DNA from: Candidatus Hydrogenedentota bacterium
Lineage (GTDB): Bacteria; Hydrogenedentota; Hydrogenedentia; Hydrogenedentales; CAITNO01
NCBI GenBank assembly: GCA_019455225.1
Contig: JACFMU010000003.1
Span: 1,697 to 65,696 of the forward strand
DNA: 64,000 nt
Direction: 5' to 3'
The notes beneath the pieces were generated by a model. The model saw only the letters and a program-made list of their open reading frames with translations, ran no database searches and had not been told where the DNA came from. Both the position numbers and the translations under genes were made by a program. Positions 1-27,524 of the stretch are shown here, piece after piece. Numbering within the stretch: position 1 is the first letter of the stretch; each line of letters opens with the position of its first letter.

Positions 1-1798
1 CGCCCGCGACACACATCACCCCGCCATAGGGACGCAGCACCCGCCACGCCTCGTCCGCCGTGAAGGGGACCGTGTCCGGGGCGTCCGGGACGCGGGCGAC
101 GAGGTCCATCATGCCCGTGGTATGGGGAAGCGGGCCGGAGGGCACCACCTGCACCGACACGCGGGCGCCGTAGAGGCCCGCCGCCGCAAGACTGCGGCGC
201 GCTGTTTCGGCCACGGCGGGGTCGGATTCCACGCAGACGACGTTCAGGCCGCTTTGCCGGACGAGTTCGGCGGCGAAGGCGCCGTCCCCCGCGCCCAGGA
301 GCAGGGCGTAGCCCTTGGAGACGCCGGCCTGTTCAAGCAGGTGTTTTGCGGCGCCGCCCGCCGCTTTGAGGGGCTCCGGACTCCATGGGTTTTCCCGGGC
401 AGGGGCGACTGTTTTCGCCTCACCGCCCGCCGCGCCGAAGCAGTGGATGGGGCCGAGGTGGCTGCTGGCGAAGAGGCGCCCGTTCGCGGCGCTCAGCCCG
501 TAAATCTTTCCCGGCGTCTCCCCGCGCCAGACCGCTTCGCCGTCCGAGGCGCGCAGTCCGGTGACACTGTCCTCGCCGCCGAGGAAAAGGGTGTCCCCGG
601 CCATGATCATGGAATAGGGGTTGGCCATGGGTTTCCGCCAGAGATAACAGGCCTCCAGGTCCTTCTGGAGTCCGGCGACGGTCCCCTCCAGCCCGGCGAT
701 GCCCGCCGCGAGCGATTCCTGGCCCGCCGTGTCCGATTTCGGCAGGGCCTTCTGCTGTTTCACCAGTTCCCGGAGTTCGGCGTTCCGCGCGTTCAACTGG
801 CGGGAGACCTCCAGATACCGGCCCCGGTCCAGGGCGGAAACCTCCTCCTTTGACTGGAGGTAGGCAATGTTGCCGTCCACCAGCATGCGGATGCCGGGAA
901 ACGTGGCGACGGCCTCGCCTGTGGCGGGGTCGGCGTAGTCCAATTGGTTGCCAGAACTGCGTCCCGGCCCGCTGACCACGGCGTCGTCCGCCAGCACCGC
1001 ATAGGCGCCGCCCGGTCCCGGCAGGGCGCCTTTCGGCTCCAGCGTGTCCCGGTCAAACATGAACGGCGCGGTGCGGCCCGTGGGGACGAAGACCCGGTTG
1101 GTGGCGGCCAGCAGATAGCCCTGCGGCGAGACCGAGGTCTGTCCCGCGGAGAGGAGCGGCTTCCCCGTGGCGGCGTCCAGGGCGCAGCGCCACACATTGT
1201 CCGGCGCGAAAAGCCCCGCAAAATAGATGACCGTGCCCTTCTCCACCAGCACGCCTGTGCGGGCCGGGGCGTGGGAGATGATCCGCCCGTTGCCCGGCAG
1301 ACGGCGGTCAGGGTTCACGGGGGAATGGCGCCAGACCAGTTTTCCGTCGGCGGCGTTCAGGCAGTAGGCGAAGCCGTCATCGGCGGAAAAATAGAGGCGG
1401 TTTCCGTCCACCACCGGCGCGAGCCGCACGGGCCCCTCGGCGAAGAAGGACCAGCGGACTTCCCCCGTGGCGGCGTCGAGACAGTAAACTTGGTCGTCCG
1501 CCGACGAGGCGAAATAAACCGCGTCCCCCGCGGAGACCGCATGATAGGCGCGGTCATAGACCACCACCGGGCTGAGCTCGCGGATTTCGTGCCAAATGTC
1601 CTGTTTCGCCGGTGCGGGCCAGGCGGGTTCCGGCGCGTGGCGCGGGACATGGGTCCACACCGGGGCCAGGGGCATGGGCAGGGCCTCGCGGGAGATGCCG
1701 CCGCGGGCGTTGTCATGGAGGTATGCGGGCCAGTCCTCCGCCGGGGCCGGACACGCCAAAACAAGCAGCAGTGACACCAGGGCCGGTAAAGTTCTCAC
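1..1798 (-). CDS. Secreted PQQ/BamB-like beta-propeller repeat protein fused to a C-terminal class I SAM-methyltransferase (spermidine-synthase-like) domain. The N-terminus is at 1798 and the 3' end runs off the window start.
   Basis: The minus strand, hand-translated from GTG at 1798, gives VRTLPALVSLLLVLACPAPAEDW (signal peptide). Repeated blades follow (VYCLDAATGEVRW, AYCLNAADGKLVWR, VWRCALDAATGKPL), then a coiled linker (ELRELVKQQKALPKSDTAG), then LLGAGDGAFAAELVRQSGLNVVCVESDPAVAETARRSL (MTase motif I). The frame stays open to coordinate 1. It is absent from the ORF track because there is no stop inside the window. Confidence 0.75.
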   Translation of the reverse strand, partial: MRTLPALVSLLLVLACPAPAEDWPAYLHDNARGGISREALPMPLAPVWTHVPRHAPEPAWPAPAKQDIWHEIRELSPVVVYDRAYHAVSAGDAVYFASSADDQVYCLDAATGEVRWSFFAEGPVRLAPVVDGNRLYFSADDGFAYCLNAADGKLVWRHSPVNPDRRLPGNGRIISHAPARTGVLVEKGTVIYFAGLFAPDNVWRCALDAATGKPLLSAGQTSVSPQGYLLAATNRVFVPTGRTAPFMFDRDTLEPKGALPGPGGAYAVLADDAVVSGPGRSSGNQLDYADPATGEAVATFPGIRMLVDGNIAYLQSKEEVSALDRGRYLEVSRQLNARNAELRELVKQQKALPKSDTAGQESLAAGIAGLEGTVAGLQKDLEACYLWRKPMANPYSMIMAGDTLFLGGEDSVTGLRASDGEAVWRGETPGKIYGLSAANGRLFASSHLGPIHCFGAAGGEAKTVAPARENPWSPEPLKAAGGAAKHLLEQAGVSKGYALLLGAGDGAFAAELVRQSGLNVVCVESDPAVAETARRSLAAAGLYGARVSVQVVPSGPLPHTTGMMDLVARVPDAPDTVPFTADEAWRVLRPYGGVMCVAG

Positions 1799-2009
1799 GT
1801 CCGGAACCTCCTTGCACACTTCGGCCGAAGCCGCCAACATCTTCCTGGTTCCCCTTCCGAAGGGGGTGGCCCTTTAGGGCCGGGGGATGTTCTTTGTCAT
1901 TCGGTCACAGCCGACAGTGTGTTCGAGTGCGGTTACTCTGATGGACCCCATGGACCGTATGGACGGCATGGACCAGGGCGGGGAGCGCTCCGGGGCCGTC
2001 ATGCCGCTG

Positions 2010-2507
2010 TCAAAACAGCAACTGCTGGTCGCTGGCCTCTTCCGGCTCCTTTTCCTTTGCGCGGCGTTTCCGCCCCTTTTCGGGAGCCTCTTCCGGCGTC
2101 TCATCAGAAACAGTTGCGGGCTCCACCCCGTAGGGGACCGGCTCCTCCGCGGCGGCGGAGGGCATGACGTCCTCCGGCGCGGCCGGGGTTGGCGCGGCCT
2201 CCTCCACAGGCTCCGGTGCCGGGACCTCCACCGACGGTGCGGGGGTGCCCGCCGCCGCCTTGGGTTTTGCGGCGCGGCGGGGCCTGCGCGGCGCGGGCCC
2301 GCTTCCCTCCGGCGCGTCGGACAGGGCGGGGGGGCTCTCGCCCCGGCTGATGTGGGCGATGTCCTCCTCCAGCATGGGCAGGGTCGTGCGCCACGCCTTG
2401 CCCATCTTGAACGCGCGCAGGCGTTTCTCACGGTACATCTGCCGCACCGTGATGGGCTTGACCTTCAGGATTTCCGCCACCTCTTCCACCGTCAGCATGG
2501 TGTCCAT
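2010..2507 (-). CDS. Helix-turn-helix (excisionase/MerR-like) DNA-binding protein with a Pro/Ala/Glu-rich low-complexity C-terminal tail
   Basis: MDTMLTVEEVAEILKVKPITVRQMYREKRLRAFKMGKAWRTTLPMLEEDI is an HTH of the excisionase type. GGAGG lies 12 nt upstream of the ATG at 2507. The track ORF 2010..2576 extends upstream of a TACAAT -10 (minus strand, 2556-2561), so it is probably over-extended. Confidence 0.65.
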   Translation of the reverse strand: MDTMLTVEEVAEILKVKPITVRQMYREKRLRAFKMGKAWRTTLPMLEEDIAHISRGESPPALSDAPEGSGPAPRRPRRAAKPKAAAGTPAPSVEVPAPEPVEEAAPTPAAPEDVMPSAAAEEPVPYGVEPATVSDETPEEAPEKGRKRRAKEKEPEEASDQQLLF

Positions 2508-2555
2508 GTCGCCGCTCGGCCTCCATGTGTTCCCCTGTGCGGGGCGCCTTCCGGC

Positions 2556-2561
2556 ATTGTA
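2556..2561 (-). promoter_or_regulatory. Candidate -10 hexamer TACAAT (minus strand) upstream of the HTH gene
   Basis: The minus-strand reading is tttgtgTACAATgcc, about 45 nt upstream of the start at 2507. It shares GTACAATGC with the -10 at 4680-4685. Confidence 0.3.
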
Positions 2562-2592
2562 CACAAAGCGACGCAAACGGACAACATAAAAA

Positions 2593-4536
2593 TCAGCCGG
2601 CAGCGCGGACCATCAGGCCTGCGACGAGCCGGGCGAAGCCCGCCGGGTCGGTTGGCTGGCCGCCCTCGGCGATGAGCGCCTGCCCGTAGAGCAGTTCGGC
2701 GTACTCGCCGATGACGGAAGAGCCTGGGTTGGTCTCGTGGAGGCGCTGGAGCGCCGCCATCACGGGATGGCCGGGGTTCAGTTCCAGAATCCGCTTGACA
2801 TCGGGGACCGCCTGGCCCATGGCCTTGAACATTTTTTCGAGCTGGGGCGACAGGTCGCCCTCGTCGGTGACGAGGCACGCGGCGGACTCGGTGAGGCGGG
2901 AGGAAAGGCGCACCTCCTTCACCCGGTCGCCCAGGGCGCCCTTGAGCATTTCAAGCAGCGAGCCGTGCTCTTTCTCGCGGTCCTTGCGGGCCTCCTCCGC
3001 CGCCTTGCGCTCCTCCTCGGTGCCCACCTCGCCCGCGCCGCGGGCGGCGGACTGGAACGCGAAGTCCTTGTACTTCTCCACCGCATCCGTCCACACCTCG
3101 TCCACGGGGTCGTCCAGCAGCAGCACCTCCCACTCCTTGGCGCGGAAGGCCTCCAGGTGCGGCGACCGGGCGATGCGCGCGCGGCTCTCGCCGGTCAGGT
3201 AGTAGATGTGCGTCTGGCCGGGCTTCATGCGGGCGATGTACTCGTCCAGCGAGACGGGCGCGTCCCCGGCGGTGGACTGGAAGCGCGCGAGGCCGAGCAG
3301 TTCCTGCTGGTTCTCCTGGTCCTGGAAGACGCCCTCCTTGAGGACCCGTCCAAACTCGGCCCAGAACTTGGCGTATTTCTCCGGCTCCTTCTCCGCCGTG
3401 TCGCGCAGCGCCGAGAGCACCTTGCCCGTGACCCCCTTGCTCATGCGCTGGATTTGGCGGTTCTGCTGGAGGATTTCGCGGGAGATGTTCAGGGGCAGGT
3501 CCTCCGAGTCCACCACGCCGCGCACGAAGCGCAGGTATTCCGGGAGCAGCTCGCGGCAGTCGTCCATGATGAAGACCCGCTTGACGTAGAGGTGGACCCC
3601 GTGGCGGACGCCCTCCTGGCGGAGCATCAGGTCAAAGGGGGCCTTGGACGGGATGTAGAGGAGCAGGCGGTACTCCAGCGTGCCCTCGATCTTCGCCTGT
3701 ATCCGCAGCAGCGGCTCGGCCCAGTCATGGGAAACATGCCGGTAAAACTCGTTGTACTCCTCCTCCGTCACCTCGGCCTTGTCCCGCAGCCAGATGGCCT
3801 TCATGGAGTTCAGCGTCTCCGTCGTGACGACCTTGCGCTCCTCCGCGCCGGGCTTGGGTTTCCCCTCCTCGTCCCGCTCGACCTCGGTCCGCTCGATGTC
3901 CATCCGGATGGGATGGGCCACGAAGTCGGAGTACTGCCGGACCACCTGGCGGATGACCCATTCCTGCGTGTAGTCCTTCAGGCCGTCCTCCTCGTCCACG
4001 GGCTTCAGGTGCAGGGTCACCGTCGTGCCCGCCTCATCGCGCGCCGCGTCCTCCAGGGTGTAATAGCCGTCCCCGGCCGACTCCCAGCGCGTGGCCGTCT
4101 CCTCCCCCGCGCGGCGGGTCAGCAGGGTCACCCGGTCCGCCACCATGAAGGTGGAGTAGAAGCCCACGCCGAACTGTCCGATGAGCGCCTCCGACGCGGC
4201 GGCGTCCTTGGACTCGCGCAGCACCTTCAGGAACTCCTGCGTGCCCGACTTGGCGATGGTGCCGATGAGCTCCCGGACCTCGTCGCGGCCCATGCCGATG
4301 CCGTTGTCCGACACGGAGAGGGTGCGCGCCGCCGGGTCCGCGTCTATGCGGATGTGGGGTTCGGTTGCCGCCTGGAGCTCCGGCGATTTCAGCGCCTCGA
4401 AACGCCGCTTGTCCAGCGCGTCCGACGCGTTCGAAATGAGCTCCCGCAGGAAAATGTCCTTGTTCGAGTAAACCGAGTGGATCATCAGGTCCAGCAGTTG
4501 CCGGGCCTCCGTTTTGAACTCAAAGCGCTCGCTCAT
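2593..4536 (-). CDS. htpG: Molecular chaperone HtpG (Hsp90)
   Basis: MSERFEFKTEARQLLDLMIHSVYSNKDIFLRELISNASDALDKRRFEAL is the canonical HtpG N-terminus. The protein is 647 aa. A GGAGGA RBS lies 9 nt upstream. Confidence 0.95.
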   Translation of the reverse strand: MSERFEFKTEARQLLDLMIHSVYSNKDIFLRELISNASDALDKRRFEALKSPELQAATEPHIRIDADPAARTLSVSDNGIGMGRDEVRELIGTIAKSGTQEFLKVLRESKDAAASEALIGQFGVGFYSTFMVADRVTLLTRRAGEETATRWESAGDGYYTLEDAARDEAGTTVTLHLKPVDEEDGLKDYTQEWVIRQVVRQYSDFVAHPIRMDIERTEVERDEEGKPKPGAEERKVVTTETLNSMKAIWLRDKAEVTEEEYNEFYRHVSHDWAEPLLRIQAKIEGTLEYRLLLYIPSKAPFDLMLRQEGVRHGVHLYVKRVFIMDDCRELLPEYLRFVRGVVDSEDLPLNISREILQQNRQIQRMSKGVTGKVLSALRDTAEKEPEKYAKFWAEFGRVLKEGVFQDQENQQELLGLARFQSTAGDAPVSLDEYIARMKPGQTHIYYLTGESRARIARSPHLEAFRAKEWEVLLLDDPVDEVWTDAVEKYKDFAFQSAARGAGEVGTEEERKAAEEARKDREKEHGSLLEMLKGALGDRVKEVRLSSRLTESAACLVTDEGDLSPQLEKMFKAMGQAVPDVKRILELNPGHPVMAALQRLHETNPGSSVIGEYAELLYGQALIAEGGQPTDPAGFARLVAGLMVRAAG

Positions 4537-4676
4537 GGCTTCTTCTCCTCCGTCTTTTTGGTTGTTTTACGGGATACAGGGTCGGCCGGCCCCGCCGCGG
4601 CCCTGCGCGGCGTCCCCAATAACGCCTCGGATAGTATACTTGGCTGACGGGAAGGGCGGCAAAACGGGGTTGCGGG

Positions 4677-4685
4677 TGGTACAAT
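4677..4685 (+). promoter_or_regulatory. Extended -10 promoter element TGgTACAAT
   Basis: gggTGgTACAATgcacc lies 46 nt upstream of the ATG at 4731. The region is the divergent promoter shared with htpG. Confidence 0.35.
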
Positions 4686-4730
4686 GCACCCCGGTGCGCC
4701 GGGGTGCGGCGCGAGGCTGAGAGAGGACAT

Positions 4731-5852
4731 ATGACTTGCCTTTATGACGAGTTTCCCGCGTTGGCGGACACCCTGCCCCGCCTGCCGCTGGTGGCGGCGC
4801 CGACCCCCGTGGAGCCTTTGGACTTCGGGGCGGAGCGCGGCGCGGACGGCGTGTGGGTGAAACGCGACGACCTCAGCTCCCTCCTCTACGGCGGGAACAA
4901 GGTGCGCAAGCTGGCCTGGCTGCTGCCGCCGGCCCTGCGCCGGGGCGCCAAGATGGTGCTCACCTTCGGCGGCGCGGGGTCAAACCACGCCCTGGCCACC
5001 GCGCTCCACGGCGCGGCGCTGGGGCTGAAATGCGCAAGCGTCCTGGGCCCCCAGCACAATGCCCGCGCCGTGCGGCGCAACCTGCTGTGGAATCTGCACG
5101 CCGGGGCGGACCTGCGCCCCTGCCCGTGGCGGTGCGCGCCCATCGAGACGGCGCGCTGTTTCATCGGCGCATGGCGGCGGGACGGCGTCATGCCGCAGGT
5201 CATCGCGCCGGGCGGCTCGTCGCCCCTGGGCACGGTCGGTTTTGTGGAGGCCGCCTTCGAGCTGCGCGGCCAGGTGCGGCGCGGGCTGCTGCCCGAGCCG
5301 GATGTCCTGTATGTGGCCTCGGGCACCATGGGCACCTGCGTGGGGCTGGCGCTGGGCCTGGCGGCGGCGGGGATGAAGACCCGCGTGGAGGCGGTGCGGG
5401 TCACCGTCGCGCCCTACACCGGCATGGCGCGGGCCCGCAAACTGTTCCGCGCCGCGAACGGACTGTTGCGCGGTTCCTGCCCGGACTTTCCGGAGTGCCC
5501 CTTTCCCGAGGACCGGTTCCGCATCCGGGACGAGTTCTTCGGCGGGGAGTACGCCCTGTTCACGCCCGAGTCCGCCACGATGGTCCGCATGGCCCGTGAA
5601 CGCTTTGGCCTGAAACTTGAGGGGACCTACACGGGCAAGGCCTTCGCCGCGCTCCATGACGATCTGGAAGCGGGCCGCCTGCGCGGGGAAACGGCCCTGT
5701 TCTGGAACACCCACAACAGCCGGGAACCGGACCCGGCGGTGGAGGCGGGGGATTACCGGCGACTGCCAAAGCCGCTGCATGGTTATTTCGAGGAGCCGGT
5801 CCAGCCGCTGGACCGGGAGGAACCGTCCGCCGTTTTGGCGCGGGAGCATTGA
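4731..5852 (+). CDS. PLP-dependent ACC deaminase / D-cysteine desulfhydrase family enzyme (possible cysteate sulfo-lyase-like)
   Basis: VWVKRDDLSSLLYGGNKVRKLAWLLPPALRRGAKMVLTFGGAGSNHALATA carries the family signature and PLP-lysine motif. A gagagagga RBS precedes the ATG at 4731. The track start 4704 is a GTG further upstream. Confidence 0.8.
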   Translation: MTCLYDEFPALADTLPRLPLVAAPTPVEPLDFGAERGADGVWVKRDDLSSLLYGGNKVRKLAWLLPPALRRGAKMVLTFGGAGSNHALATALHGAALGLKCASVLGPQHNARAVRRNLLWNLHAGADLRPCPWRCAPIETARCFIGAWRRDGVMPQVIAPGGSSPLGTVGFVEAAFELRGQVRRGLLPEPDVLYVASGTMGTCVGLALGLAAAGMKTRVEAVRVTVAPYTGMARARKLFRAANGLLRGSCPDFPECPFPEDRFRIRDEFFGGEYALFTPESATMVRMARERFGLKLEGTYTGKAFAALHDDLEAGRLRGETALFWNTHNSREPDPAVEAGDYRRLPKPLHGYFEEPVQPLDREEPSAVLAREH

Positions 5853-5853
5853 C

Positions 5854-6156
5854 ATGGAAAAACAGGCGATGCCCTTCCAGAAAATCGTGTTCGTGTGCGT
5901 GCACGAGCGCGAGCCGGGCATGGGGGCGTGCTGTTCCGCCCGCGGCTCGGTGGCGCTGCACGCGGCGCTGAAGGCGCGGATTAAGGAGAGGGGGCTGGGC
6001 GCGAAAATCCGGGTCAGCCGCTCGGGCTGCCAGGACCGCTGCGCCATGGGCCCCAATGTGATGGTGTTTCCGGACAATGTCTGGTACAGCAGGGTCGGCG
6101 AGGCCGACTTGGACGCCATTGTCGCGGACTTGGTGGCGGGACTGGACAAGGCATGA
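5854..6156 (+). CDS. Thioredoxin-like [2Fe-2S] ferredoxin
   Basis: MEKQAMPFQKIVFVCVHEREPGMGACCSARGS...SRSGCQDRCAMGPNVMVFPDNVWYSRVGEADLDAIV shows the CC and CxxxC cluster ligand pattern. The ATG lies 1 nt after the upstream stop. Its own stop overlaps the next start as ATGA. Confidence 0.75.
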   Translation: MEKQAMPFQKIVFVCVHEREPGMGACCSARGSVALHAALKARIKERGLGAKIRVSRSGCQDRCAMGPNVMVFPDNVWYSRVGEADLDAIVADLVAGLDKA

Positions 6157-7604
6157 GCACGGGTTCGGGATGGAGCCGCCGGGACTTTTTACGGACGGCC
6201 GGGGCGGGCGTGCTGGGCGCGGCCTGCGCCTCCGGCGCGGCGGCGGGGAATCCGGACACCCGGCCCAATGTGCTGTTCATCTCCATTGACGACCTGAACG
6301 ACTGGGTGGGCTGCCTGGGCGGGCACCCGCAGGCGAACACCCCGAACCTGGACCGCCTTGCCGGGGAGGGGGTGCTCTTTGAGAACGCCCACTGCCAGGC
6401 GCCCATCTGTACCCCGTCGCGGGGCAGCCTCCTCTCGGGGATGCTCCCCTCGACCACGGGGCTGTACTTCCTTGCGCCGCAGTACCGCGAGGCGGAAACC
6501 CTCCGGGACTCCGTCTCCCTGCCCCAGTATTTCCGGGAGCACGGCTATCTGTCCCTGGGTGTCGGCAAGACCTTCCACACCGGCACGGACCCGCTCTCCT
6601 TTGACGAGTACGGCGGCGAGATGGGCAGTTTCGGGCCGCGCCCCGAAAAGAAACTCAGCCTGCCCAAGGGGCATCCCCTGTGGGACTGGGGCGCGTTTCC
6701 CGAGCGGGACGAGGAGATGCCGGACCACAAAATCGCCCTGTGGGCGAAAGACAAGCTGGCGCAGCCGCATGACCGGCCCTTCTTCCTCTCCGTGGGCTTT
6801 TACCGGCCCCATGTGCCCATGTACGCCCCGCAAAAGTGGTTTGACCTGCATCCGCGCGGGGGTATTATCCTGCCCGAGGCCTCGCCGGACGACCTGGCGG
6901 ACATCCCGCCCTTCGCCCTCGACCTGACTTACGGGGCGGCGGCGCCCCGCCATGAATATGTCGTGTCCCTCAATGAGTGGGACCACGCCGTGCAGTCCTA
7001 CCTCGCCTGCACGTCCTTTGTGGACCACTGCGTCGGCATCGTGCTCGACGCCCTGCGCGACAGCGGGCACGCGGACAACACCCTCGTGGTGCTCTGGGGC
7101 GACCACGGGTTCCACCTTGGCGAGAAGATGCGCTGGGAGAAGCGCTCCCTGTGGGAGGAGGCCACCCGCGCCCCGCTGATGCTCGCCGGACCGGGCGTGC
7201 GCCGGGGCGGGCGCTGCCGCAGGCCCGTCGGCATGATTGACCTGTACCCCACCCTGGCGGAGCTCTGCGGACTGCCGCCGAAGGCCGGACTCGACGGGCA
7301 GAGCCTGCGCCCCCTGGTGGAAGACCCCGATACCCCCTGGGAGCGCCCGGCCCTCACCACCTTCGGCCCGGACAACCACTCCCTGCGCTCCGAGCGTTAC
7401 CGGTACACCCGCTACGCCGACGGGTCCGAGGAGCTCTACGACCACGACAACGACCCCAACGAGGGGACCAATCTCGCGGGGAAAGCGGGCAGCGCGGATA
7501 TCATCGCGGAGATGCGGCCCTGGCTGCCAAAGGTCAACCGCGCGCCCCTCCCCGGCAGCAAAGGCTCCAACTCGCCCCTCTACGAGTCGCCCGAAGTGTG
7601 GTGA
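6153..7604 (+). CDS. Tat-exported arylsulfatase-family sulfatase (formylglycine type)
   Basis: SRRDFLRTAGAGVLGAACA is a Tat signal. NVLFISIDDLNDW and HCQAPICTPSRGSLLSGM give the canonical C-x-P-x-R active site. Confidence 0.9.
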   Translation: MSTGSGWSRRDFLRTAGAGVLGAACASGAAAGNPDTRPNVLFISIDDLNDWVGCLGGHPQANTPNLDRLAGEGVLFENAHCQAPICTPSRGSLLSGMLPSTTGLYFLAPQYREAETLRDSVSLPQYFREHGYLSLGVGKTFHTGTDPLSFDEYGGEMGSFGPRPEKKLSLPKGHPLWDWGAFPERDEEMPDHKIALWAKDKLAQPHDRPFFLSVGFYRPHVPMYAPQKWFDLHPRGGIILPEASPDDLADIPPFALDLTYGAAAPRHEYVVSLNEWDHAVQSYLACTSFVDHCVGIVLDALRDSGHADNTLVVLWGDHGFHLGEKMRWEKRSLWEEATRAPLMLAGPGVRRGGRCRRPVGMIDLYPTLAELCGLPPKAGLDGQSLRPLVEDPDTPWERPALTTFGPDNHSLRSERYRYTRYADGSEELYDHDNDPNEGTNLAGKAGSADIIAEMRPWLPKVNRAPLPGSKGSNSPLYESPEVW

Positions 7605-7883
7605 GGTGCCGACCTGTGCTCCGTGGCACGGGCCGAAAGTGGCACGGGCGTCCCGCCCGTGGAAAATCATGGCCGGGACGGACCTGCCACAACACATTGC
7701 TGCGGGTTGTGCGCATCCCGCCGCCTTTTGTGCGCAAGTGCCGCGCATGAAGGCCGGTCTTTGCGCGGTGAGGCCGAAAAACGGTATCATATCGCCGCAA
7801 ATCACCGTGTCCGCGCGACGCGGCACATTCCATCCGGCGGCGCCAAATCCCGTGTCCGCCCCAACTGAGGAGGTTAAGGAGTC

Positions 7884-9197
7884 ATGGCCAAACTGGCAGT
7901 GCTGGGCGGCAAGCCCCTGGCGGGAAAATCGCGGAAATGGGCGAAATGGCCCATCAGCGACGCGGAGGACGTGAAACTGGTCTCGAAGATCACCGCGTCG
8001 AACCGGTGGTCTTTTGACGGGCCGGTGGAGTGGGAGTTCGCCGAGAAGTTCACGGCGTACCAGACCGCGAAGTACGGCCTGTGCTGCGCGAACGGCACGG
8101 TGGGCATCCAGCTCGCGCTGGAGGCGCTGGGTGTGGGCGCGTATGACGAGGTGATCGTGCCGGGCATGACCTGGCAGGCCACGGCGGCGGCGTGCGTGGA
8201 CGTGAACGCCATCCCCGTTCTGGTGGATGTCGAGCCGGACACGTGGAACCTGGACCTGGACAAGGTCGAGGCGGCCATCACGCCGAAGACGAAGGCCGTC
8301 ATCGTGGTGCACCTCTACGGCTGCATGACCGACCTGGACCGCCTGCAGAAGCTGTGCAAGAAGCACGGGCTCTTCCTCATCGAGGACTGCGCCCACCAGC
8401 ACGGCTCGTTCTGGAAGGGGAAGGGTGTCGGCTCCTTCGGCGACATCAGCTCCTGGAGCTTCCAGGAGTCGAAGGTGCTCTCCAGCGGCGAGGGCGGCTT
8501 CAACATGTGCAAGACGAAGGACCTCTTCTACAAGCTGTACAGCCTGCGCAACTGCGGCCGCCCCTACCCGGCGGACCCGGTGGTCTTCGGCCTGAAGAAG
8601 GCGGCAGGCATGGAGACGGCCCTCCAGTCCGGCAACTACCGCCTCACGGAGTGGCAGGCCGCCATCCTCCTGGGCGGGCTCAAGCGCCTGGACGCGCAGG
8701 TGAAACTGCGCGACGCCAACGCGATTTACCTGAACTCGCTGCTGGCGGGGATTCCCGGCATCCTGCCGATGCGCCGCCGCCCGCAGGTCACCCAGCAGAG
8801 TTATTTCAACTTTGCGTTCCGCCTCGACACGGCGGCGCTGGGCGTCAACAACAAGCAGTTCTGCGTGGCCCTGAACGCCGAGCTGAACATGCCCGACGAG
8901 TTCGAGCCGCCCTACGAGCCGCTGAACGGCTGCGGCCTGTTCAAGCCGACCACGAAGGTGCGGCACAACCTCGGCAAGGACTACTTCAAGGCGATCAACC
9001 CGAAGCGCTTTGACCTGCCCGTCTGCGCGGAGGCCACCGCGAACAGCGGCGTCACCGCCCACCACCAGATTCTCATGAACAAAAAAGAGGACATGGACCT
9101 CTTCGCCGCCGCCGTGAGGAAGATTGCGGAGAACGCGGGCGAGCTGGCCAAGTTCACCCCCGGCGAGTTGAAGAAGTACCAGGGCCTCGCCCGCTAA
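7884..9197 (+). CDS. DegT/DnrJ/EryC1/StrS-family PLP-dependent aminotransferase
   Basis: GLCCANGTVGIQLALEALGVG, LIEDCAHQHGSF, and the SFQESKVLSSGEGG lysine region match the family. A gaggaggttaaggag RBS precedes the ATG. Confidence 0.85.
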   Translation: MAKLAVLGGKPLAGKSRKWAKWPISDAEDVKLVSKITASNRWSFDGPVEWEFAEKFTAYQTAKYGLCCANGTVGIQLALEALGVGAYDEVIVPGMTWQATAAACVDVNAIPVLVDVEPDTWNLDLDKVEAAITPKTKAVIVVHLYGCMTDLDRLQKLCKKHGLFLIEDCAHQHGSFWKGKGVGSFGDISSWSFQESKVLSSGEGGFNMCKTKDLFYKLYSLRNCGRPYPADPVVFGLKKAAGMETALQSGNYRLTEWQAAILLGGLKRLDAQVKLRDANAIYLNSLLAGIPGILPMRRRPQVTQQSYFNFAFRLDTAALGVNNKQFCVALNAELNMPDEFEPPYEPLNGCGLFKPTTKVRHNLGKDYFKAINPKRFDLPVCAEATANSGVTAHHQILMNKKEDMDLFAAAVRKIAENAGELAKFTPGELKKYQGLAR

Positions 9198-9220
9198 ACA
9201 TCATCCTGAAACAAACCGTC

Positions 9221-9252
9221 CGGCCCGCGTTCCCGAAAGGGGGCGCGGGCCG
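9221..9252. terminator. Bidirectional stem-loop terminator between convergent genes
   Basis: cggcccgcg-ttcccgaaaggggg-cgcgggccg is followed by tttcc. It sits between the DegT stop (9197) and the beta-helix gene stop (9260). Confidence 0.55.
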
Positions 9253-9259
9253 TTTCCGT

Positions 9260-10954
9260 CTACCGCGGTTCCAGCGGGTTTCCCTCCGCGTCCAGATTCC
9301 CCTCCGCCGCCACGCCGTGGTTGCCGCGCAGGACCACGGCGGCGCCCGCCTCAAGAAAGCGGTTGCCCGTGATGCGGGCGTTCTCGACCCCCTCCACCGC
9401 CACGCCGCCGTAAATGCGGCTGTTCTCTATGACGATGTCATGGATTGCGCGCGGCGGCGCCGCCTCATTCCCCTTGGGCTGGCCGGAGAATATCAGCGCC
9501 TTGTCCGGGTTGCCCCGGCCCCGCCGCAGGGTGCAGTCCGTGATGCGGACCCCGGAGGGGAAGGGCCCCTCCAGATGCTCGCAGTAAAACCACAGCAGCG
9601 CCGTCACGTCGCAGCCCTCCATCCGGACGGGTGACTGCATGCGGCAGCTCATGCCGATGACGCAGTTTTTCAGCAGCGTGTCGGGGTTGGCCTGCTCCGG
9701 ATCCCAGACCATGACGCCCTCCGCCAGTTCCGGCGCGGGCGCGTCCAGGGTCAGCGCAATCTCTCCCGGCGCGGCGGGCTTGTCCGAGATGACCCGCGGA
9801 GGCCCCTCCTCCACTTTCACGATGCGGCGCGTTGGGAAAAGCCGGCCCGTGTCCCGGTCCGCCGCCGCCAGCATGCCGCTCTCGCGCCAGGGGACATATC
9901 CCAGCGGAAAGGCCTGCGAGACCACAATCCAGTCCGGGGCCTCCACCCTGCGGACCGTGGACGCGTGGGTGGAGATGTTGAAGGCGTCGTCGTTCATGCC
10001 GAAGACCTCGCAGTCCTCCCAGCGCAGGGCGGCGCTGTTCCCCTTGACATGGAATCCGTCCCGCCACAGCGACATCCACCGCCCCGAACCGGGCCGGGGC
10101 CGGAGATGGACCCGCCGGAACGTGAGCGCGCCCCCGTTGCGCAGCAGTTCGAAACCGAACCACGGGGCGGACCACAGCTCCACGTCCTCGAACAGGGCGT
10201 CCGTGTTGTCTCGCACCTGGAAACACGCGCCGGGGCCGAACCGGTGGGCGATGCCCGGCACGGGGACACTGATCCGGGTTACCCCCGGCGTGATCTTTTC
10301 AAACCCGTGAAAACTGTCCCCGCAATGCACGCGGAGCGTCCCATCCCCGGTCTTTTCGATGTTTTCCGTCCAACAATGCTCGCTGACCGTTCCGTAAGGC
10401 CCGTCATGCCACAGCATCGAGAAGAAGGCCTGTTCCCCGTCCTCCCGCGTGGGGCCGCCGGAGGGCGCGTCCCCCTGCCCTGGACGGAGCTTCACCCCTA
10501 GAAAGCGCCCCGCCGCGTCCGCCTCCGTCACGGTGCCCTCCACAAAGGGGAGCGGGTCAAAATCCACCTTCAGGTTCCGCACCGTGGTCCCCCGCGATCC
10601 GGCCAGGCGCATAAACCGGAGATACGGGTTCAGCAGAAACAAGCACCCGCCGCCGTCCAGTTCAAGGCCGGCCACACCGTCCAGGGGGAACACATACCGC
10701 TCCGGCGAGGTCGTGACGCGGACGGTTCCGTTTTCCGGAAAAATCAGGGCAACCGGCCCCTTGACCCCCCGGGCCTCCGCCAGCAGCCGGGCAATGGCGG
10801 GGCCGTCGTCCGCCGCGCCGTCGGCGATGAGCCCGTAGTCCGCCGCCTTGAGCCGGAGCGCCGCCGCCCCGGCGGCGTTCTCCGTGAAAAGCGCCGCCAG
10901 CAGCAGAAACGGCATGGACGCGGACACTGTCCAGCCCGCCCGGTGACAGCCCAT
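9260..10954 (-). CDS. Secreted right-handed parallel beta-helix (pectin-lyase-fold) protein
   Basis: MGCHRAGWTVSASMPFLLLAALFTENAAGAAA is a signal peptide. Beta-helix repeats include NSRIYGGVAVEGVENARITGNRF. GGAGGA lies 9 nt upstream of the ATG at 10954. The track start 11041 is over-extended. Confidence 0.7.
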   Translation of the reverse strand: MGCHRAGWTVSASMPFLLLAALFTENAAGAAALRLKAADYGLIADGAADDGPAIARLLAEARGVKGPVALIFPENGTVRVTTSPERYVFPLDGVAGLELDGGGCLFLLNPYLRFMRLAGSRGTTVRNLKVDFDPLPFVEGTVTEADAAGRFLGVKLRPGQGDAPSGGPTREDGEQAFFSMLWHDGPYGTVSEHCWTENIEKTGDGTLRVHCGDSFHGFEKITPGVTRISVPVPGIAHRFGPGACFQVRDNTDALFEDVELWSAPWFGFELLRNGGALTFRRVHLRPRPGSGRWMSLWRDGFHVKGNSAALRWEDCEVFGMNDDAFNISTHASTVRRVEAPDWIVVSQAFPLGYVPWRESGMLAAADRDTGRLFPTRRIVKVEEGPPRVISDKPAAPGEIALTLDAPAPELAEGVMVWDPEQANPDTLLKNCVIGMSCRMQSPVRMEGCDVTALLWFYCEHLEGPFPSGVRITDCTLRRGRGNPDKALIFSGQPKGNEAAPPRAIHDIVIENSRIYGGVAVEGVENARITGNRFLEAGAAVVLRGNHGVAAEGNLDAEGNPLEPR

Positions 10955-11044
10955 GGGTTTGCTCCTCCATTCATGCGGTGGCCCGCGGCCATTGGGCACG
11001 AAGGGCGTGGCCGAATTCAACCCGGAGACCCGGTGTGACACGCT

Positions 11045-11196
11045 GGCCGGTTGGCGTGGATGTCTTATCTTGCTCCTACATCCTCAACCGAATCTGGCCT
11101 TCCGTACCCGCCACCCCTTCCCGGGCTGCCGGTGTGTGTGACCGGTCATGATTAGAGCAAGAGCAAGATAAAGAGCAAGATAAAAACGGGATGCGC
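11045..11196. repeat. MITE-like element copy A (TTGCTC/GAGCAA-armed family), short version
   Basis: The terminus ggccggttggcgtg and left arm remnant tcttatcttgctcc are present. The module caaccgaatctggccttccg...ctgccggtgtgtgtgaccggtc is about 85% identical to the one in copy D. The right arm reads gagcaagagcaagataaagagcaagataaaaacgggatg. Confidence 0.6.
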
Positions 11197-11330
11197 GTAT
11201 GCCCGGCTCCGCCCGCGCAAAGTGTGACAATACAGCGCCTATGGGGGTAGAATTGGAAAGCAGTCCGCCCCGGCCGGGGCGTCCCGGCGGATACCGGCGC
11301 GGCGGGCGCACACCACAAGGAGGCAGTGCG

Positions 11331-12413
11331 TTGAAACACAGGGCGCGCGCGGGCGGGGTTGCGTTGTTGCTGGTCTGTGCGCTTTTTTCGGGTTGTCCCC
11401 GGAAGAAGGCGCCGGATGCGGATTTTAGCGCGGACAAGACCACCGGCCCGGCTCCGCTGGCGGTCCAGTTCACGGACCTCACCGCGCCGGGCTCCTCGCC
11501 CGTCACCGAATGGCGGTGGCTTTTCGGCGACGGCGCGGAAAGCGCGGAGCAGAACCCCGCCCACACCTACGGCGCCGAGGGTGTTTACACCGTCTCGCTG
11601 GAGGCGACCAGCGCGGCCGGCGCCAACAAGGAGACCAAAACGGGTTACATCACGGTCACGGAGCCTGAGCCGGAACCCGGACAGGTGGAGACCGTGATGC
11701 TGCCGGGGGACGTGCCCCTGTTGATGGTGTGGGTGCCCGCAGGAATCTTTCAGATGGGCGCCGTTTCCGGCGAGCAGGGCGCGCAGTCGGACGAGTCGCC
11801 CCGGCACGAGGTCACGCTGACAAAGGGCTTCTGGATCGGCAAATACGAGATTACCAAGGCGCAGTGGGCCGCGGTCATGGACGGCGCGGCCCCGTGGGAG
11901 GGCCGGGGCAACATCAGCGACGACCCGGACAGTCCGGCGGTGTGGCTCACCTGGGAGGACTGCGCGGCGTTCACGGCGCGCCTGAGCGTCCTGACGGGGA
12001 AGGCGTACCGCCTTCCGGCCGAGGCGGAGTGGGAGCGCGCCGGCCGCGCCGAGACCAATTCCCGGTTTTATTGGGGGGACGACCTGGACAGGCTGTTCAT
12101 CGGCGAAAACGCCTGGTGGATTGAAAACACCTGGTCCGCCGGCGAGCGGTACGCCCACACGGTCGGGCTGAAAATCCCAAACACCTTCGGCCTGCACGAC
12201 ATGGCCGGAAACGTCTGGGAATGGTGCCAGAACTGGTACTACCCCTACACGGTGGACCCGGTGACGGACCCCCGCGGGCCGGCCACGGGGGATTCGCGGG
12301 TGATGCGGGGCGGCGGCTGGTTCAACAACGAGGCCGAGTGCCGCCTGGCGAACCGGACCTACAAAATCCCCCAGTACGCCAACTACGGCACGGGGTTCCG
12401 CGTCGCCCGGTGA
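11331..12413 (+). CDS. Lipoprotein with a PKD domain and a formylglycine-generating-enzyme (FGE/SUMF1)-like domain
   Basis: A TTG start with an aaggagg RBS gives LKHRARAGGVALLLVCALFSGC, a lipobox. A PKD-like segment is ADFSADKTTGPAPLAVQFTDLT...NPAHTYGAEGVYTVSLEATSAAG. FGE motifs are GKAYRLPAEAEWERAGRA, HDMAGNVWEWCQNWY and RVMRGGGWFNN. Confidence 0.75.
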   Translation: MKHRARAGGVALLLVCALFSGCPRKKAPDADFSADKTTGPAPLAVQFTDLTAPGSSPVTEWRWLFGDGAESAEQNPAHTYGAEGVYTVSLEATSAAGANKETKTGYITVTEPEPEPGQVETVMLPGDVPLLMVWVPAGIFQMGAVSGEQGAQSDESPRHEVTLTKGFWIGKYEITKAQWAAVMDGAAPWEGRGNISDDPDSPAVWLTWEDCAAFTARLSVLTGKAYRLPAEAEWERAGRAETNSRFYWGDDLDRLFIGENAWWIENTWSAGERYAHTVGLKIPNTFGLHDMAGNVWEWCQNWYYPYTVDPVTDPRGPATGDSRVMRGGGWFNNEAECRLANRTYKIPQYANYGTGFRVAR

Positions 12414-12459
12414 GGCGGTCCGGAAACCCGCCCCATTCGTTGCGCAATCCGGAAAAAAC

Positions 12460-12488
12460 TTGACACCCGCACCGCCCAACGGGTAACA
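12460..12488 (+). promoter_or_regulatory. Sigma70-type promoter for rpsD (TTGACA-N17-GTAACA)
   Basis: aaaaaacTTGACAcccgcaccgcccaacggGTAACAt lies 150 nt upstream of rpsD. Confidence 0.5.
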
Positions 12489-12634
12489 TACCGCCCCTGT
12501 CACGGACGAAGTGTGCGTGTGTGTCTTCATGGGCGCGTCCGCGCCCTCCCCGGCACAAAACATGCAGGGTCTGTGCGGCTGAAGGCAAACGGCGCGGCGG
12601 TACCGCCCGCCAGAAGAAGGAACGAGAGCACTCT

Positions 12635-13246
12635 ATGGCCAGATATCTGGGACCGAAGCACAAGTTGAGCCGCAGAATTGGCAAATGCGTCTGGGGCAAG
12701 CCGGACAGCCCCGCCTCGAAACGCCCGTATCCGTCGGGCCAGCACGGGGCGAACCTGCGCCGCAAGATGTCGGTGTACGGCACCCAGTTGCTGGAGAAGC
12801 AGAAAATCCGCATGCACTACGGCGCCATCATGGAAAAGCAGATGCGCCGCATCTTCGACAAGGCCCGGCGCATGGGCGGCAACACGGGCACCAACCTGAT
12901 GATGCTGCTCGAGTCCCGCCTGGACTGCGTCGTGTGGCGCCTGGGCTTCGCCCCCACGATTTTCGCGGCGCGCCAGCTTGTCAACCACTGCCATGTGATC
13001 GTGGACGGCGAAAAGGTCAACATCCCCTCCTTCCAGGTGAAGCCGGGCATGGTGGTCGCCATCCGCGAGAAGAGCCGCAAGATTCCCATGGTCGCCGAGG
13101 GCGCCGAGCATCCGCCCGTTCAGATTCCCGAGTATCTTGAGCGCGCCCCGAAGGCGTTCGAGGGCAAAATGACGGCCACGCCGAACGCGGCGACGATTCT
13201 GTTCCAGGCGGACACCAACAGCATTATCGGTTTCTACTCCCGGTAA
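12635..13246 (+). CDS. rpsD: 30S ribosomal protein S4
   Basis: MARYLGPKHKLSRRIGKCVWGKPDSPASKRPYPSGQHG...IVDGEKVNIPSFQVKPG is a full-length S4. Confidence 0.95.
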   Translation: MARYLGPKHKLSRRIGKCVWGKPDSPASKRPYPSGQHGANLRRKMSVYGTQLLEKQKIRMHYGAIMEKQMRRIFDKARRMGGNTGTNLMMLLESRLDCVVWRLGFAPTIFAARQLVNHCHVIVDGEKVNIPSFQVKPGMVVAIREKSRKIPMVAEGAEHPPVQIPEYLERAPKAFEGKMTATPNAATILFQADTNSIIGFYSR

Positions 13247-13269
13247 TGCCCCCGCACAAGTTTGTTCTC

Positions 13270-13309
13270 CTGGCGGACCGTTCTTTCGGCGGTCCGCCAG
13301 TGTTGTGTT
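13270..13309 (+). terminator. Rho-independent terminator after rpsD
   Basis: ctggcggaccg-ttctttc-ggcggtccgccag is a perfect 11-bp stem followed by tgttgtgtt. Confidence 0.65.
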
Positions 13310-13360
13310 ACAGCGCGTTCAGAGACCGCCGCGGCGCGCGGCGGAGGATCGGGGACGAAT

Positions 13361-14641
13361 ATGAGCATTGACATCGTGGTCGGCGCCAATTGGGGCGACG
13401 AGGGCAAGGGCCGCATGGTGGACTACCTGGCCCAGACGGCGGATTTCGTGGTGCGGTACCAGGGCGGGAACAACGCCGGGCACACCGTGGTGAACGAGTT
13501 CGGCGAGTTCAAACTGCACCTGCTTCCCTCGGGCGTCTTCAACCCGAAGGTGATGAACATCCTCGGACCGGGCATGGTCATTGACCTGCAGGGTCTGGCC
13601 GACGAGATTGACGCGCTGAAGGCGCGGGGCATCACGCCGAACCTGCGCGTGTCCGACCGGGCCACCATCTGCTTCCCGTTCCACCGGATGGAGGACGGCT
13701 GGGAGGAGGAGCGCCTGGGCAAGAACGCCTACGGCTCCACCCGGCGCGGCATCGCCCCGGCCTACGGCGACCGCACGCTGAAGAAGGCGCTCCAGATGGG
13801 GGACCTGCTGTTCCCGGCGCGGCTGCGCGCCCGGCTGGAGCAGGTCTGCGAGTGGAAACTCCAGAAGGCGGAGCTTTTCTACGGGCAGAAGGACACCTTC
13901 ACCTACGAGGGCATGCTTGAGTGGGCCGAAACCCACGGAAACCGCCTGCGCGGCCTCATCTGCGACACCACGGTGCTGCTGGACGAGGGCGCGCGCGCCG
14001 GGAAGAACATCCTTTTCGAGGCGCAGTTGGGCACCCTGCGCGACCTGAACTTCGGCATCTACCCCTTCACCACGTCGTCCTGCACGCTGGCGTCCTACGC
14101 GCCCATCGGCGGCGGGCTCTTCGGGCACTCCCTTGACCGGGTGGTGGCCGTGGTGAAGGCGTTCTCGACCTGCGTGGGCGAGGGTCCCTTTGTGACGCTG
14201 ATGGACAAGGCGGAGGCGGACCCGCTCCGCGAGTCGGCCAAGGAATACGGCGCGGCCACGGGCCGGCCCCGGACCATCGGCCACTTTGACGCCCTGGCCA
14301 CCCGCTACGGGGTCCAGGTGCAGGGCGCGACCGAGGTGGCCCTGACCAAGCTGGACAGCCTCAGCGGGCAGAAACGCCTCAAAATCTGCACCCACTACGA
14401 GCACGACGGAAAGCGTTACGACCGGTTTCCCCTCAACGCCGTCCTTGAGGAGGCCACCCCGGCCTACATCGAGATGCCCGGCTGGGGCGAGGACATCACC
14501 GGCGCGCGCCGCTTTGAGGACCTGCCGGAGACGGCGCGGGCCTATGTGCTGAAGATCGAGGAGCTCATCGGCTGCCGGGTCCGGTACGTGTCGGTGGGTC
14601 CCGAGCGCGACGCCCTCATGGACCGGGGCACCGGCTGCTGA
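13361..14641 (+). CDS. purA: Adenylosuccinate synthetase
   Basis: MSIDIVVGANWGDEGKGRMVDYLAQTADFVVRYQGGNNAGHTV is the canonical PurA N-terminus. Confidence 0.95.
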   Translation: MSIDIVVGANWGDEGKGRMVDYLAQTADFVVRYQGGNNAGHTVVNEFGEFKLHLLPSGVFNPKVMNILGPGMVIDLQGLADEIDALKARGITPNLRVSDRATICFPFHRMEDGWEEERLGKNAYGSTRRGIAPAYGDRTLKKALQMGDLLFPARLRARLEQVCEWKLQKAELFYGQKDTFTYEGMLEWAETHGNRLRGLICDTTVLLDEGARAGKNILFEAQLGTLRDLNFGIYPFTTSSCTLASYAPIGGGLFGHSLDRVVAVVKAFSTCVGEGPFVTLMDKAEADPLRESAKEYGAATGRPRTIGHFDALATRYGVQVQGATEVALTKLDSLSGQKRLKICTHYEHDGKRYDRFPLNAVLEEATPAYIEMPGWGEDITGARRFEDLPETARAYVLKIEELIGCRVRYVSVGPERDALMDRGTGC

Positions 14642-17948: not shown

Positions 17949-18259
17949 GACACGGAAGGGGGGGCAGTACGCATTGTGTCCGCGGCGACTGTTTCATTTA
18001 AGAGCAGCCGCTTTCTTTTTGGACACCCTGGACTGGCCCGCCAGCATTCACCACCCGTCAACCCGCCAGAGACCATGTCCATAACCTATTGCACCGCAAT
18101 GCAATGCGTGTGCTTTTGAGTTGTGGCGGAAAAATGGCACGGCCCATGCTCATTGAAAAGTGTCCCCAACGGACGACTAGTTCGGAAGACGACAGCAACA
18201 GTTAAAAAAATGAGCACAATGGACCCGTGAGGGCCGCAACGAAGAAGGAGGCACATACC

Positions 18260-18724
18260 ATGGCAACGCTTTATTGGGACCCCGTTCAGGGACTGGAGGC
18301 GGTGCGCCGGGAAATGGAGCGGGTGTTTGACCAGGCCGACCCCGTGCGCCGCATGGTTAACCGGTTCACCGGACAGCCGGGCATCGCGGGCCGCGCCTAT
18401 CCGCTTCTGAACGTGAGCGAGGACAAGGACAACATCCATGTCGAGGCGCTGGCCTCCGGTTTGGACCCGGACTCCATCGAGGTGTCGGTGCTGCGCGACC
18501 AGTTGCGCATCAGCGGCGTGAAGAGCGCCATCACCCCGGACATCAAGCCCGAGGCCTACCACCGCAGCGAACGCGGCGCCGGGCGCTTCATGCGCATGCT
18601 GTCCCTGCCGGTCGAGGTGGACGGCGACAAGGTGACCGCCGAGTACAAGAACGGCCTGCTGCTGCTGACGCTCCCCAAGCACGAGGCGGCCAAGCCCAAG
18701 AAAATCTCCGTGAGCGTACAGTGA
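18260..18724 (+). CDS. Hsp20/alpha-crystallin family small heat-shock protein
   Basis: MATLYWDPVQGLEAVRREMERVFDQ...AEYKNGLLLLTLPKHEAAKPKKISV matches the family. An aaggagg RBS lies 8 nt upstream. Confidence 0.85.
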   Translation: MATLYWDPVQGLEAVRREMERVFDQADPVRRMVNRFTGQPGIAGRAYPLLNVSEDKDNIHVEALASGLDPDSIEVSVLRDQLRISGVKSAITPDIKPEAYHRSERGAGRFMRMLSLPVEVDGDKVTAEYKNGLLLLTLPKHEAAKPKKISVSVQ

Positions 18725-18780
18725 CGGACCGAAAGGCCCGCGGCAAACCCAACAACAACCCCCGAGAGGAGGATGAGACC

Positions 18781-21340: not shown

Positions 21341-21350
21341 GCGCGGGCGC

Positions 21351-21448
21351 TTCCTGGGAACGCCAATCTCCTGATTGGCCTGTTGGGGGATGTTCTTGAA
21401 CCAATGATGCCAATCGGGAGATTGGCGTTCCCGGGAAGCGCATCCCCC
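21351..21448. repeat. REP-like long palindromic hairpin element (GGGAACGCCAATCTCC family), copy 1
   Basis: cttcctgggaacgccaatctcctgattggc...gccaatcgggagattggcgttcccgggaagc has roughly 30-bp arms, a 2-mismatch stem and a 29-nt loop. It lies between two co-directional genes. Confidence 0.7.
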
Positions 21449-21476
21449 CCGAAACAGAACTGCATGCCCCGTCTTT

Positions 21477-24904: not shown

Positions 24905-24912
24905 ACGCCATC

Positions 24913-25959: not shown

Positions 25960-25980
25960 GGGGCTGTTCCTGACGACTAG

Positions 25981-26182: not shown

Positions 26183-26205
26183 ATCAAGCAATGGAGGCGC
26201 CGGGA

Positions 26206-27508: not shown

Positions 27509-27524
27509 CGCGGAGGGAAGAACC

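Follow-up and report, generated by a model that had tools for sequence, protein, structure and literature searches.

A tightly packed PLP enzyme, ferredoxin and sulfatase gene trio in Hydrogenedentota: probably an arrangement of one genus and not a conserved pathway

Introduction

Does the tight packing of three genes on one strand mean that their products act in one pathway? The question is raised by a stretch of 64,000 nt (hereafter, the window) of Candidatus Hydrogenedentota contig JACFMU010000003.1 (GCA_019455225.1, positions 1,697–65,696), in which a gene for a pyridoxal phosphate (PLP)-dependent enzyme is followed almost without spacing by genes for a small [2Fe-2S] ferredoxin and a sulfatase. 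A preliminary description of this locus had suggested that the trio serves a pathway acting on sulfated or sulfonated substrates, in which the PLP enzyme might be an L-cysteate sulfo-lyase (CuyA) and the ferredoxin might support a redox step, such as the anaerobic maturation of the sulfatase or the reaction of the PLP enzyme itself. The analysis presented here points to a different answer. All three genes are ordinary representatives of known superfamilies, the way in which they are arranged is local to one genus, and it appears probable that the trio is a co-directional, most likely co-transcribed group limited to about one Hydrogenedentota genus and not a conserved pathway.

Results

Junctions of the trio

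All three open reading frames (ORFs; coordinates in Table 1) are true genes and not chance ORFs, as shown by a GC content at third codon positions (GC3) of 0.88–0.89 in those of the PLP enzyme and the sulfatase, by significant family matches and by the many homologues of each gene. The PLP ORF extends from an ATG at 4731, a start supported by the family alignment, where M1 is nearly invariant, to a TGA at 5850–5852. A lone C at 5853 forms the 1-nt spacer before the ferredoxin ATG (5854–5856), which has a GGGAG motif 7 nt upstream of it, and the ferredoxin stop (TGA, 6154–6156) overlaps the sulfatase ATG (6153–6155) by 4 nt as ATGA; the sulfatase stop codon lies at 7602–7604. The coordinates and junctions are therefore as first described.

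Of the tight coupling proposed on this basis, one part stands and another does not. The three genes are co-directional and probably co-transcribed, and the UGAcAUG and AUGA junctions make it plausible that translation of the second and third genes is coupled to that of the gene before by termination and reinitiation. Shared function is a separate matter, for which a tight junction is weak evidence, because in L094, one of the closest related loci, the sulfatase orthologue (76% identical) shares a 4-nt overlap of this kind with an rmlB-like dehydratase gene that is unrelated. That rmlB-like gene (dTDP-glucose 4,6-dehydratase, 285–1282 of L094) is itself broken across two frames; an ambiguous base (X) falls at the break, and the probable cause is an error of assembly or sequencing.

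Phylogenetic depth of the arrangement

The gene order was surveyed from each of the three genes. On the PLP side, the survey took in the best 80 of 385 genome-scan loci, of which ten end too near the gene to judge and the other 70, reaching 400 nt or more downstream of it, were counted. In none of the 70 does a sulfatase gene directly follow the PLP gene, and a ferredoxin gene does so in just three (L011, L013 and L037), all from Hydrogenedentota. When the ORFs lying up to 6 kb from the PLP gene were clustered across the 80 loci, no conserved neighbour emerged, with no real family present in more than six of them. On the sulfatase side, 80 metagenome loci, all on JGI contigs and with relatives 48–76% identical, were surveyed, and the count covers the 75 that extend 350 nt or more upstream of the gene; neither a ferredoxin gene nor a PLP gene of the window type occurs anywhere in these 75 loci. 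Many of the related sulfatase loci sit in clusters of sulfatase genes.

The ferredoxin side gave a similar result. Four homologues 57–62% identical to the window ferredoxin lie, respectively, by an NAD-kinase-like gene and a GH2 gene, by TspO and photolyase genes, by a second ferredoxin gene and by a HAD hydrolase gene, with neither a PLP gene nor a sulfatase gene beside any of the four; tblastn, moreover, found no PLP gene upstream of the free-standing ferredoxin homologues in L086–L092. One of these loci (L089, 4710–5300) carries two tandem genes for thioredoxin-like [2Fe-2S] ferredoxins, 9 nt apart and about 30% identical to each other. The metagenome contig is 145 kb long, and next to the tandem it has a sulfotransferase gene and genes for polysaccharide synthesis.

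The full trio was seen in near-identical contigs of the same species (L001–L003; L004 and L005 are fragments of about 690 nt with the ferredoxin and partial flanking ORFs) and in one further locus, L183, which is 87% identical in DNA, with the ferredoxin 89–91% and the sulfatase 87% identical. Sequence runs with the trio are SRR12344472, SRR27370451 and SRR29243433. Since searches from all three genes recovered the full trio from these alone, it is about genus-deep, while the pair of PLP enzyme and ferredoxin is somewhat older and the PLP enzyme on its own is widespread. The trio is not a conserved operon or cassette, as its gene order was not seen in phylogenetically distant genomes. The preliminary description had named conservation of the cassette across related genomes as a check on its pathway, and a lack of synteny in relatives as evidence against it; beyond about the genus level no synteny was found, and the pathway reading is for that reason unsupported.

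The older pair merits weighing in its own right. Besides the window and L183, it occurs without a sulfatase gene in L011, L013 and L173 (PLP enzymes 67% identical to that of the window) and in L037 (55%); in L173 the PLP gene is followed, after a 35-nt spacer, by an ORF of 102 amino acids (aa), which shares 57% identity with the ferredoxin of the window, and next by a convergent HicA gene. The flanks of the pair differ entirely: in the window they are htpG and the sulfatase gene, in L011 and L013 genes for a DUF1559 pseudopilin and for LptF/G, and in L037 those for an E1 dehydrogenase and an APH kinase. A true functional pair confined to a Hydrogenedentota subclade, with the sulfatase as an incidental passenger, would account for this persistence across three unrelated sets of flanks and PLP divergence down to 55%, as well as for the PLP-linked ferredoxins falling in one region of the ferredoxin tree; the ferredoxin could, for example, be a redox partner, a regulator or the recipient of sulfide released by a desulfhydrase. 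Against this, the PLP tree places the window, L011 and L013 in one clade whose sister clade (L006–L010) has no ferredoxin, and 67 of the 70 assessable loci, from many phyla, have the PLP enzyme without it. The ferredoxin P0124, which is near the PLP-linked ones on the ferredoxin tree, is not beside a PLP gene, and beta-elimination by a PLP enzyme needs no electron carrier. A single ancestral juxtaposition followed by vertical inheritance would fit the pattern, too, and a functional pair of this kind is possible although rather unlikely.

Several of these points nonetheless weigh against regarding the trio as no more than a local arrangement. L183 keeps both the 1-nt spacer and the ATGA overlap, which are unusually tight junctions; the persistence of the PLP–ferredoxin pair in three unrelated contexts hints at some selection for linkage, and to claim no functional link at all may be too strong for these two proteins. 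The surveys, too, have their bounds, that of the PLP enzyme in its 80 best loci and the ten truncated ones among them, and that of the sulfatase in its restriction to JGI contigs.

The PLP enzyme and the ferredoxin

At the level of families, the gene identities given in the preliminary description are borne out for all three products. The PLP enzyme belongs to PF00291 (97.5 bits, above the Pfam gathering score of 35) and has 3079 homologues at E ≤ 1e-10; its best NCBIfam match is the D-cysteine desulfhydrase family TIGR01275 (163.2 bits, cut-off 289.4) and its best PDB matches are PH0054 (1J0A, E = 5e-37) and Salmonella DcyD (4D8T, E = 4e-32). For comparison, reference enzymes were taken from annotated plasmid records and validated with NCBIfam models, on which E. 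coli DcyD scored 741.9 bits, the Burkholderia 1-aminocyclopropane-1-carboxylate (ACC) deaminase 635.8 bits and Ruegeria CuyA 527.3 bits. The window enzyme is 28–32% identical to these references, which are 39–45% identical among themselves and form a clade apart from it on a neighbour-joining tree.

The curated subfamilies can be set aside one after the other. CuyA is ruled out by a score of 150.7 bits against a cut-off of 450 (NF052482), 29% identity and the lack of an adjacent racemase gene; DcyD proper by scores of 112.9–130.6 bits against cut-offs of 429–610 (NF003029, NF003030 and NF003032) and by the separate clade. XcbE of coenzyme M biosynthesis (NF052537) is likewise below its cut-off, with 150.8 against 450 bits. 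In ACC deaminase, Glu295 and Leu322 (Pseudomonas numbering) are the specificity residues; these columns hold E295 and L322 in the Burkholderia reference and T301 and T327 in the window enzyme, and this difference, together with 83.4 against 392 bits for TIGR01274, rules out a true ACC deaminase. A plasmid protein of Rhizobium leguminosarum bv. trifolii CB782 (L179; CP007069.1, 396352–397368), annotated as 1-aminocyclopropane-1-carboxylate deaminase, was dropped as the ACC deaminase reference in favour of the Burkholderia enzyme, since it has no TIGR01274 match at E ≤ 1e-60 and carries S286 and T311 in place of E295 and L322; its annotation is probably wrong, and a DcyD-family protein would fit better.

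Judged by its sequence, the window enzyme is a member of the superfamily beyond the curated subfamilies, in a separate and uncharacterised DcyD-like clade. The placement among ACC deaminase, DcyD and CuyA that had been proposed as a check puts it apart from all three, with residues of the DcyD type: its active-site residues K57, S84-N85-H86, Y300-T301 and T327 follow the DcyD pattern and are invariant across a 21-member alignment of the family. Because these residues match, the enzyme probably shares the alpha,beta-elimination mechanism of DcyD. The family differs in having WNT(H/Y)NS in place of the HTGG loop and a conserved, family-specific C-terminal extension of about 40 aa; the C-terminal tail is conserved as DYxxLPxxFHxYFEExVQPLD. 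Its members are 45–67% identical across many phyla, including Hydrogenedentota, Chloroflexota (Dehalococcoidia), Nitrospirota (Nitrospirales), Desulfobacterota, Actinomycetota, Planctomycetota, Spirochaetes and WOR-3, and no NCBIfam equivalog is satisfied by the clade. Paralogue pairs of the enzyme occur in several metagenome-assembled genomes (MAGs), e.g., L012/L023, L015/L035, L020/L021 and L055/L060.

The ferredoxin is predicted to be of the thioredoxin-like [2Fe-2S] type from its match to Aquifex aeolicus Fd4 (PDB 1F37; phmmer, E = 2.8e-14), in which the cluster cysteines are aligned. A total of 55 homologues was found, and the ligands C15, C27, C59 and C63 occur without exception in 60 of 60 homologous sequences. 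It remains below the curated cut-offs, scoring 17.2 against 24.8 bits for PF01257, 52.7 against 195 for NF041613 and 47.9 against 150 for NF041612.

Given a PLP clade that no curated model reaches, it might be proposed that its reaction differs from those of DcyD, CuyA, XcbE and ACC deaminase, that in one Hydrogenedentota subclade the ferredoxin is its dedicated partner, and that in the genus of the window the sulfatase was recruited to the unit to link in the scavenging of sulfate esters. We regard this combination as quite improbable.

The sulfatase and its maturation

The third gene codes for a Cys-type (formylglycine) S1 sulfatase with scores of 157.7 bits for PF00884 and 49.6 bits for SGSH_C. 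Its formylglycine motif, C86-T-P-S-R90, aligns with C-A-P-S-R of 6HHM, its closest solved relative (E = 8e-60), beyond which human iduronate-2-sulfatase is also matched (5FQL, E = 1.4e-38). 6HHM is P18_S1_7, an endo-2-sulfo-D-xylose ulvan sulfatase (PMC9096561). The N-terminus carries a twin-arginine (Tat) signal that passes TIGR01409 (20.1 bits, cut-off 16.7), with the motif S8-R-R-D-F-L-R14, which is kept in L183. Neither the PLP enzyme nor the ferredoxin has a signal peptide; with the sulfatase predicted to be exported by the Tat system, the products of the trio would therefore end up in different compartments.

This bears directly on the view of the trio as a single module for the catabolism of sulfated or sulfonated substrates, in which the sulfatase would release a substrate that a CuyA-like sulfo-lyase or desulfhydrase processes and the ferredoxin would provide a redox step. 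The tight coupling of the three ORFs and its retention in L183 would suit such a module, as would the DcyD-type residues, which fit beta-elimination of sulfur leaving groups, and a CuyA model score about equal to those for the other subfamilies. However, besides the compartments, the genus-level limit of synteny from any of the three genes and the failure of the PLP enzyme as CuyA without the racemase seen in Ruegeria, the nearest solved relatives of the sulfatase act on sulfated sugars and not on amino acids. PLP-dependent beta-elimination and the hydrolysis of sulfate esters are, furthermore, both redox-neutral by established enzymology. Such a module is highly improbable.

Anaerobic sulfatase-maturating enzymes (anSMEs) need a low-potential reductant, and the preliminary description had offered this as a role for the ferredoxin. 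The window does contain, 3.6 kb from the Cys-type sulfatase gene, a gene for a protein that has a PKD domain ahead of its FGE-sulfatase domain (PF03781, 153.3 bits). Compared with the formylglycine-generating enzyme (FGE) of T. curvata (6S07), however, this protein has Asn at the first copper-binding catalytic Cys and lacks three residues after the second Cys, and it is probably not a working FGE. That the ferredoxin donates electrons to a radical S-adenosylmethionine (SAM) anSME converting Cys86 to formylglycine before Tat export is scarcely credible: the ATGA overlap would match co-expression, Tat export fits maturation in the cytoplasm and no aerobic FGE is evident locally, but no radical-SAM/SPASM gene was found among the approximately 45 window ORFs scanned, a ferredoxin lies upstream in none of the 75 related sulfatase loci, the other two window sulfatases have no ferredoxin neighbour, and in relatives the ferredoxin orthologue accompanies the PLP gene or stands alone, never with a sulfatase. 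Nothing links sulfatase maturation to the ferredoxin.

Ends of the transcription unit

Upstream of the PLP gene lies the divergent htpG, and the promoter of the cluster is presumed to be in the 194 nt between them. A Shine-Dalgarno-like AGAGGA is present at about 4722–4727, ahead of the PLP ATG; a consensus scan found no confident plus-strand sigma-70 promoter. A riboswitch or other RNA leader upstream of the PLP gene was considered and rejected, as an Rfam search (E ≤ 1, positions 1–14000) gave a single sub-threshold nadA match elsewhere. As to internal signals that might split the trio, the consensus scan returned one promoter-like site, inside the sulfatase gene (6841–6868), and four terminator-like sites against 3.7 expected by chance, which speaks neither for nor against a split.

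Directly 3' of the sulfatase stop is a GC-rich double hairpin without a T-run. The region 7600–7700 folds at −50.4 kcal/mol (z = −3.0), and none of 200 shuffles folds as well. The first part of the hairpin is kept in L183. Within it the direct repeat GTGGCACGGGC occurs twice, the copies being 16 nt apart; as a dispersed repeat it was rejected, with six matches (at most one mismatch) against 5.2 expected by chance, and it is a local direct repeat only. The consensus scan found no canonical terminator here. The hairpin is likely to mark the 3' end of the transcription unit, and its role in this high-GC genome could be that of a factor-independent terminator or of an element that stabilises the RNA. 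If it is the 3' end, then the gene for the DegT aminotransferase (PF01041, 275 bits), which was correctly noted as following downstream and which begins after a 279-nt gap, would be a separate unit.

Genomic background

The window has a GC content of 67% and codes for three sulfatases along with further candidates for glycan degradation (Table 1) and an SSF transporter. These genes are interspersed with housekeeping genes (htpG, rpsD, purA, mfd, tyrS and hsp20), making up a dispersed layout with no dedicated locus. Roughly one gene in twenty is a sulfatase gene, and a sulfatase neighbour is hence unsurprising. Sulfatase genes and a potential to degrade sulfated polysaccharides have been reported for Hydrogenedentota MAGs (PMC9723792, PMC10866078). 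A further case of tight same-strand packing in the window is a tandem of Hsp20 genes, where the leading gene has a stop codon that overlaps what may be the GTG start of the next (GTGA, 18721–18724). Four long ORFs at 24511–26073 (−), 26167–26847 (−), 27303–30878 (+) and 30903–32486 (−), resemble coding sequence in composition (GC3 of 0.72–0.81) but have no Pfam match at E ≤ 0.001. Some of them may be wrong-frame calls in high-GC DNA; the third, of 1191 aa, would be a large protein without a known family.

Table 1. Features of the window discussed in the text (positions are those of the 64,000-nt stretch)
Feature	Position	Strand	Length	Basis or remark
Fold-type II PLP enzyme, cytoplasmic	4731–5852	+	373 aa	PF00291; TIGR01275 as best NCBIfam match; PDB matches, residues, tree
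Thioredoxin-like [2Fe-2S] ferredoxin (predicted)	5854–6156	+	100 aa	PDB 1F37 match; four ligand Cys
Cys-type (formylglycine) S1 sulfatase, Tat-exported (predicted)	6153–7604	+	483 aa	PF00884; motif; TIGR01409
Intergenic region htpG–PLP gene, presumed promoter region of the cluster	4537–4730	+	194 nt	ORF map and sequence
GC-rich double hairpin	7606–7695	+		RNA fold; directly 3' of sulfatase stop; no T-run
htpG	2593–4536	−		divergent from the PLP gene
DegT aminotransferase	7884–9197	+		PF01041
PKD and FGE-sulfatase domain protein	11199–12413	+		PF03781
Tandem Hsp20 genes	18227–19170	+
Second sulfatase	20045–21745	−
3-keto-disaccharide hydrolase	33807–34493	−
GH2 beta-galactosidase	34704–38672	−	1322 aa
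GH123-domain protein	54395–57379	+
Third sulfatase	58481–60355	−

Discussion

The observations above can be brought together in a simple scenario. An older unit of two genes, for a DcyD-like PLP enzyme and a ferredoxin, would have been common to a small Hydrogenedentota subclade, and in the genus of the window this unit would have gained a sulfatase gene directly downstream, this order of assembly being the one suggested by the distribution of the pair and the trio. Transcription would start in the htpG–PLP intergenic region, run through the trio and end at the double hairpin, and reinitiation at UGAcAUG and AUGA could couple the translation of the ferredoxin and the sulfatase. With Lys57 as the Schiff-base residue and Thr301 and Thr327 in its active site, the PLP enzyme most likely acts in the cytoplasm on a small amino acid that bears a leaving group at the beta position, by an alpha,beta-elimination that is redox-neutral, and the ferredoxin would act as a cytoplasmic one-electron carrier. 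The sulfatase would be folded and presumably formylglycine-modified in the cytoplasm, exported by the Tat system, and would remove sulfate esters from glycans outside the cytoplasm, as one of the many such enzymes of a glycan-degrading organism.

As a system, the trio thus matters little, and the useful result is a negative one: in this compact, high-GC and sulfatase-rich genome, tight spacing and ATGA overlaps should not be taken to show a shared pathway. A modest positive value lies in the PLP enzyme, which represents a large and conserved DcyD-like clade beyond the reach of curated models.

Comparison with known systems

The sulfatase parallels the S1_7 carbohydrate sulfatases (6HHM, 5FQL) in its CxPxR motif, alkaline-phosphatase-like sulfatase domain and C-terminal subdomain; it is set apart by its Tat signal and by its position after a ferredoxin gene, which was not seen among the 80 related sulfatase loci. 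The ferredoxin has the size and fold family of Aquifex Fd4, its C15, C27, C59 and C63 aligning with C9, C22, C55 and C59 of that protein, and it is also related to the 2Fe ferredoxins of Azotobacter vinelandii and Clostridium pasteurianum (NF041613 and NF041612), but its gene has no nif or hydrogenase context.

Among relatives of the PLP enzyme, the D-cysteate sulfo-lyase CuyA is a member of the same superfamily whose beta-elimination sets free a sulfur oxyanion. On the CuyA model the window protein does about as well as on other subfamily models; it is 29% identical to the Ruegeria enzyme and has Y-T-G-K where CuyA has Y-S-A-K; in the Ruegeria plasmid locus (L181) an amino-acid racemase gene follows that of CuyA, whereas a ferredoxin and a sulfatase gene follow the PLP gene of the window. 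With the ACC deaminase AcdS (PDB 1TYZ and 1F2D) it shares the fold and the conserved PLP-binding Lys, Ser and Tyr. DcyD of E. coli and Salmonella (PDB 4D8T) belongs to the same fold-type II PLP superfamily. The E. coli gene adjoins cystine transporter genes, neighbours that the window gene lacks, and the window protein is 32% identical to the validated E. coli enzyme and lies in a separate clade on the tree; still, its active-site residues match those of DcyD throughout, with K57 corresponding to K51, S84-N85-H86 to S78-N79-H80, Y300-T301 to Y287-T288 and T327 to T315.

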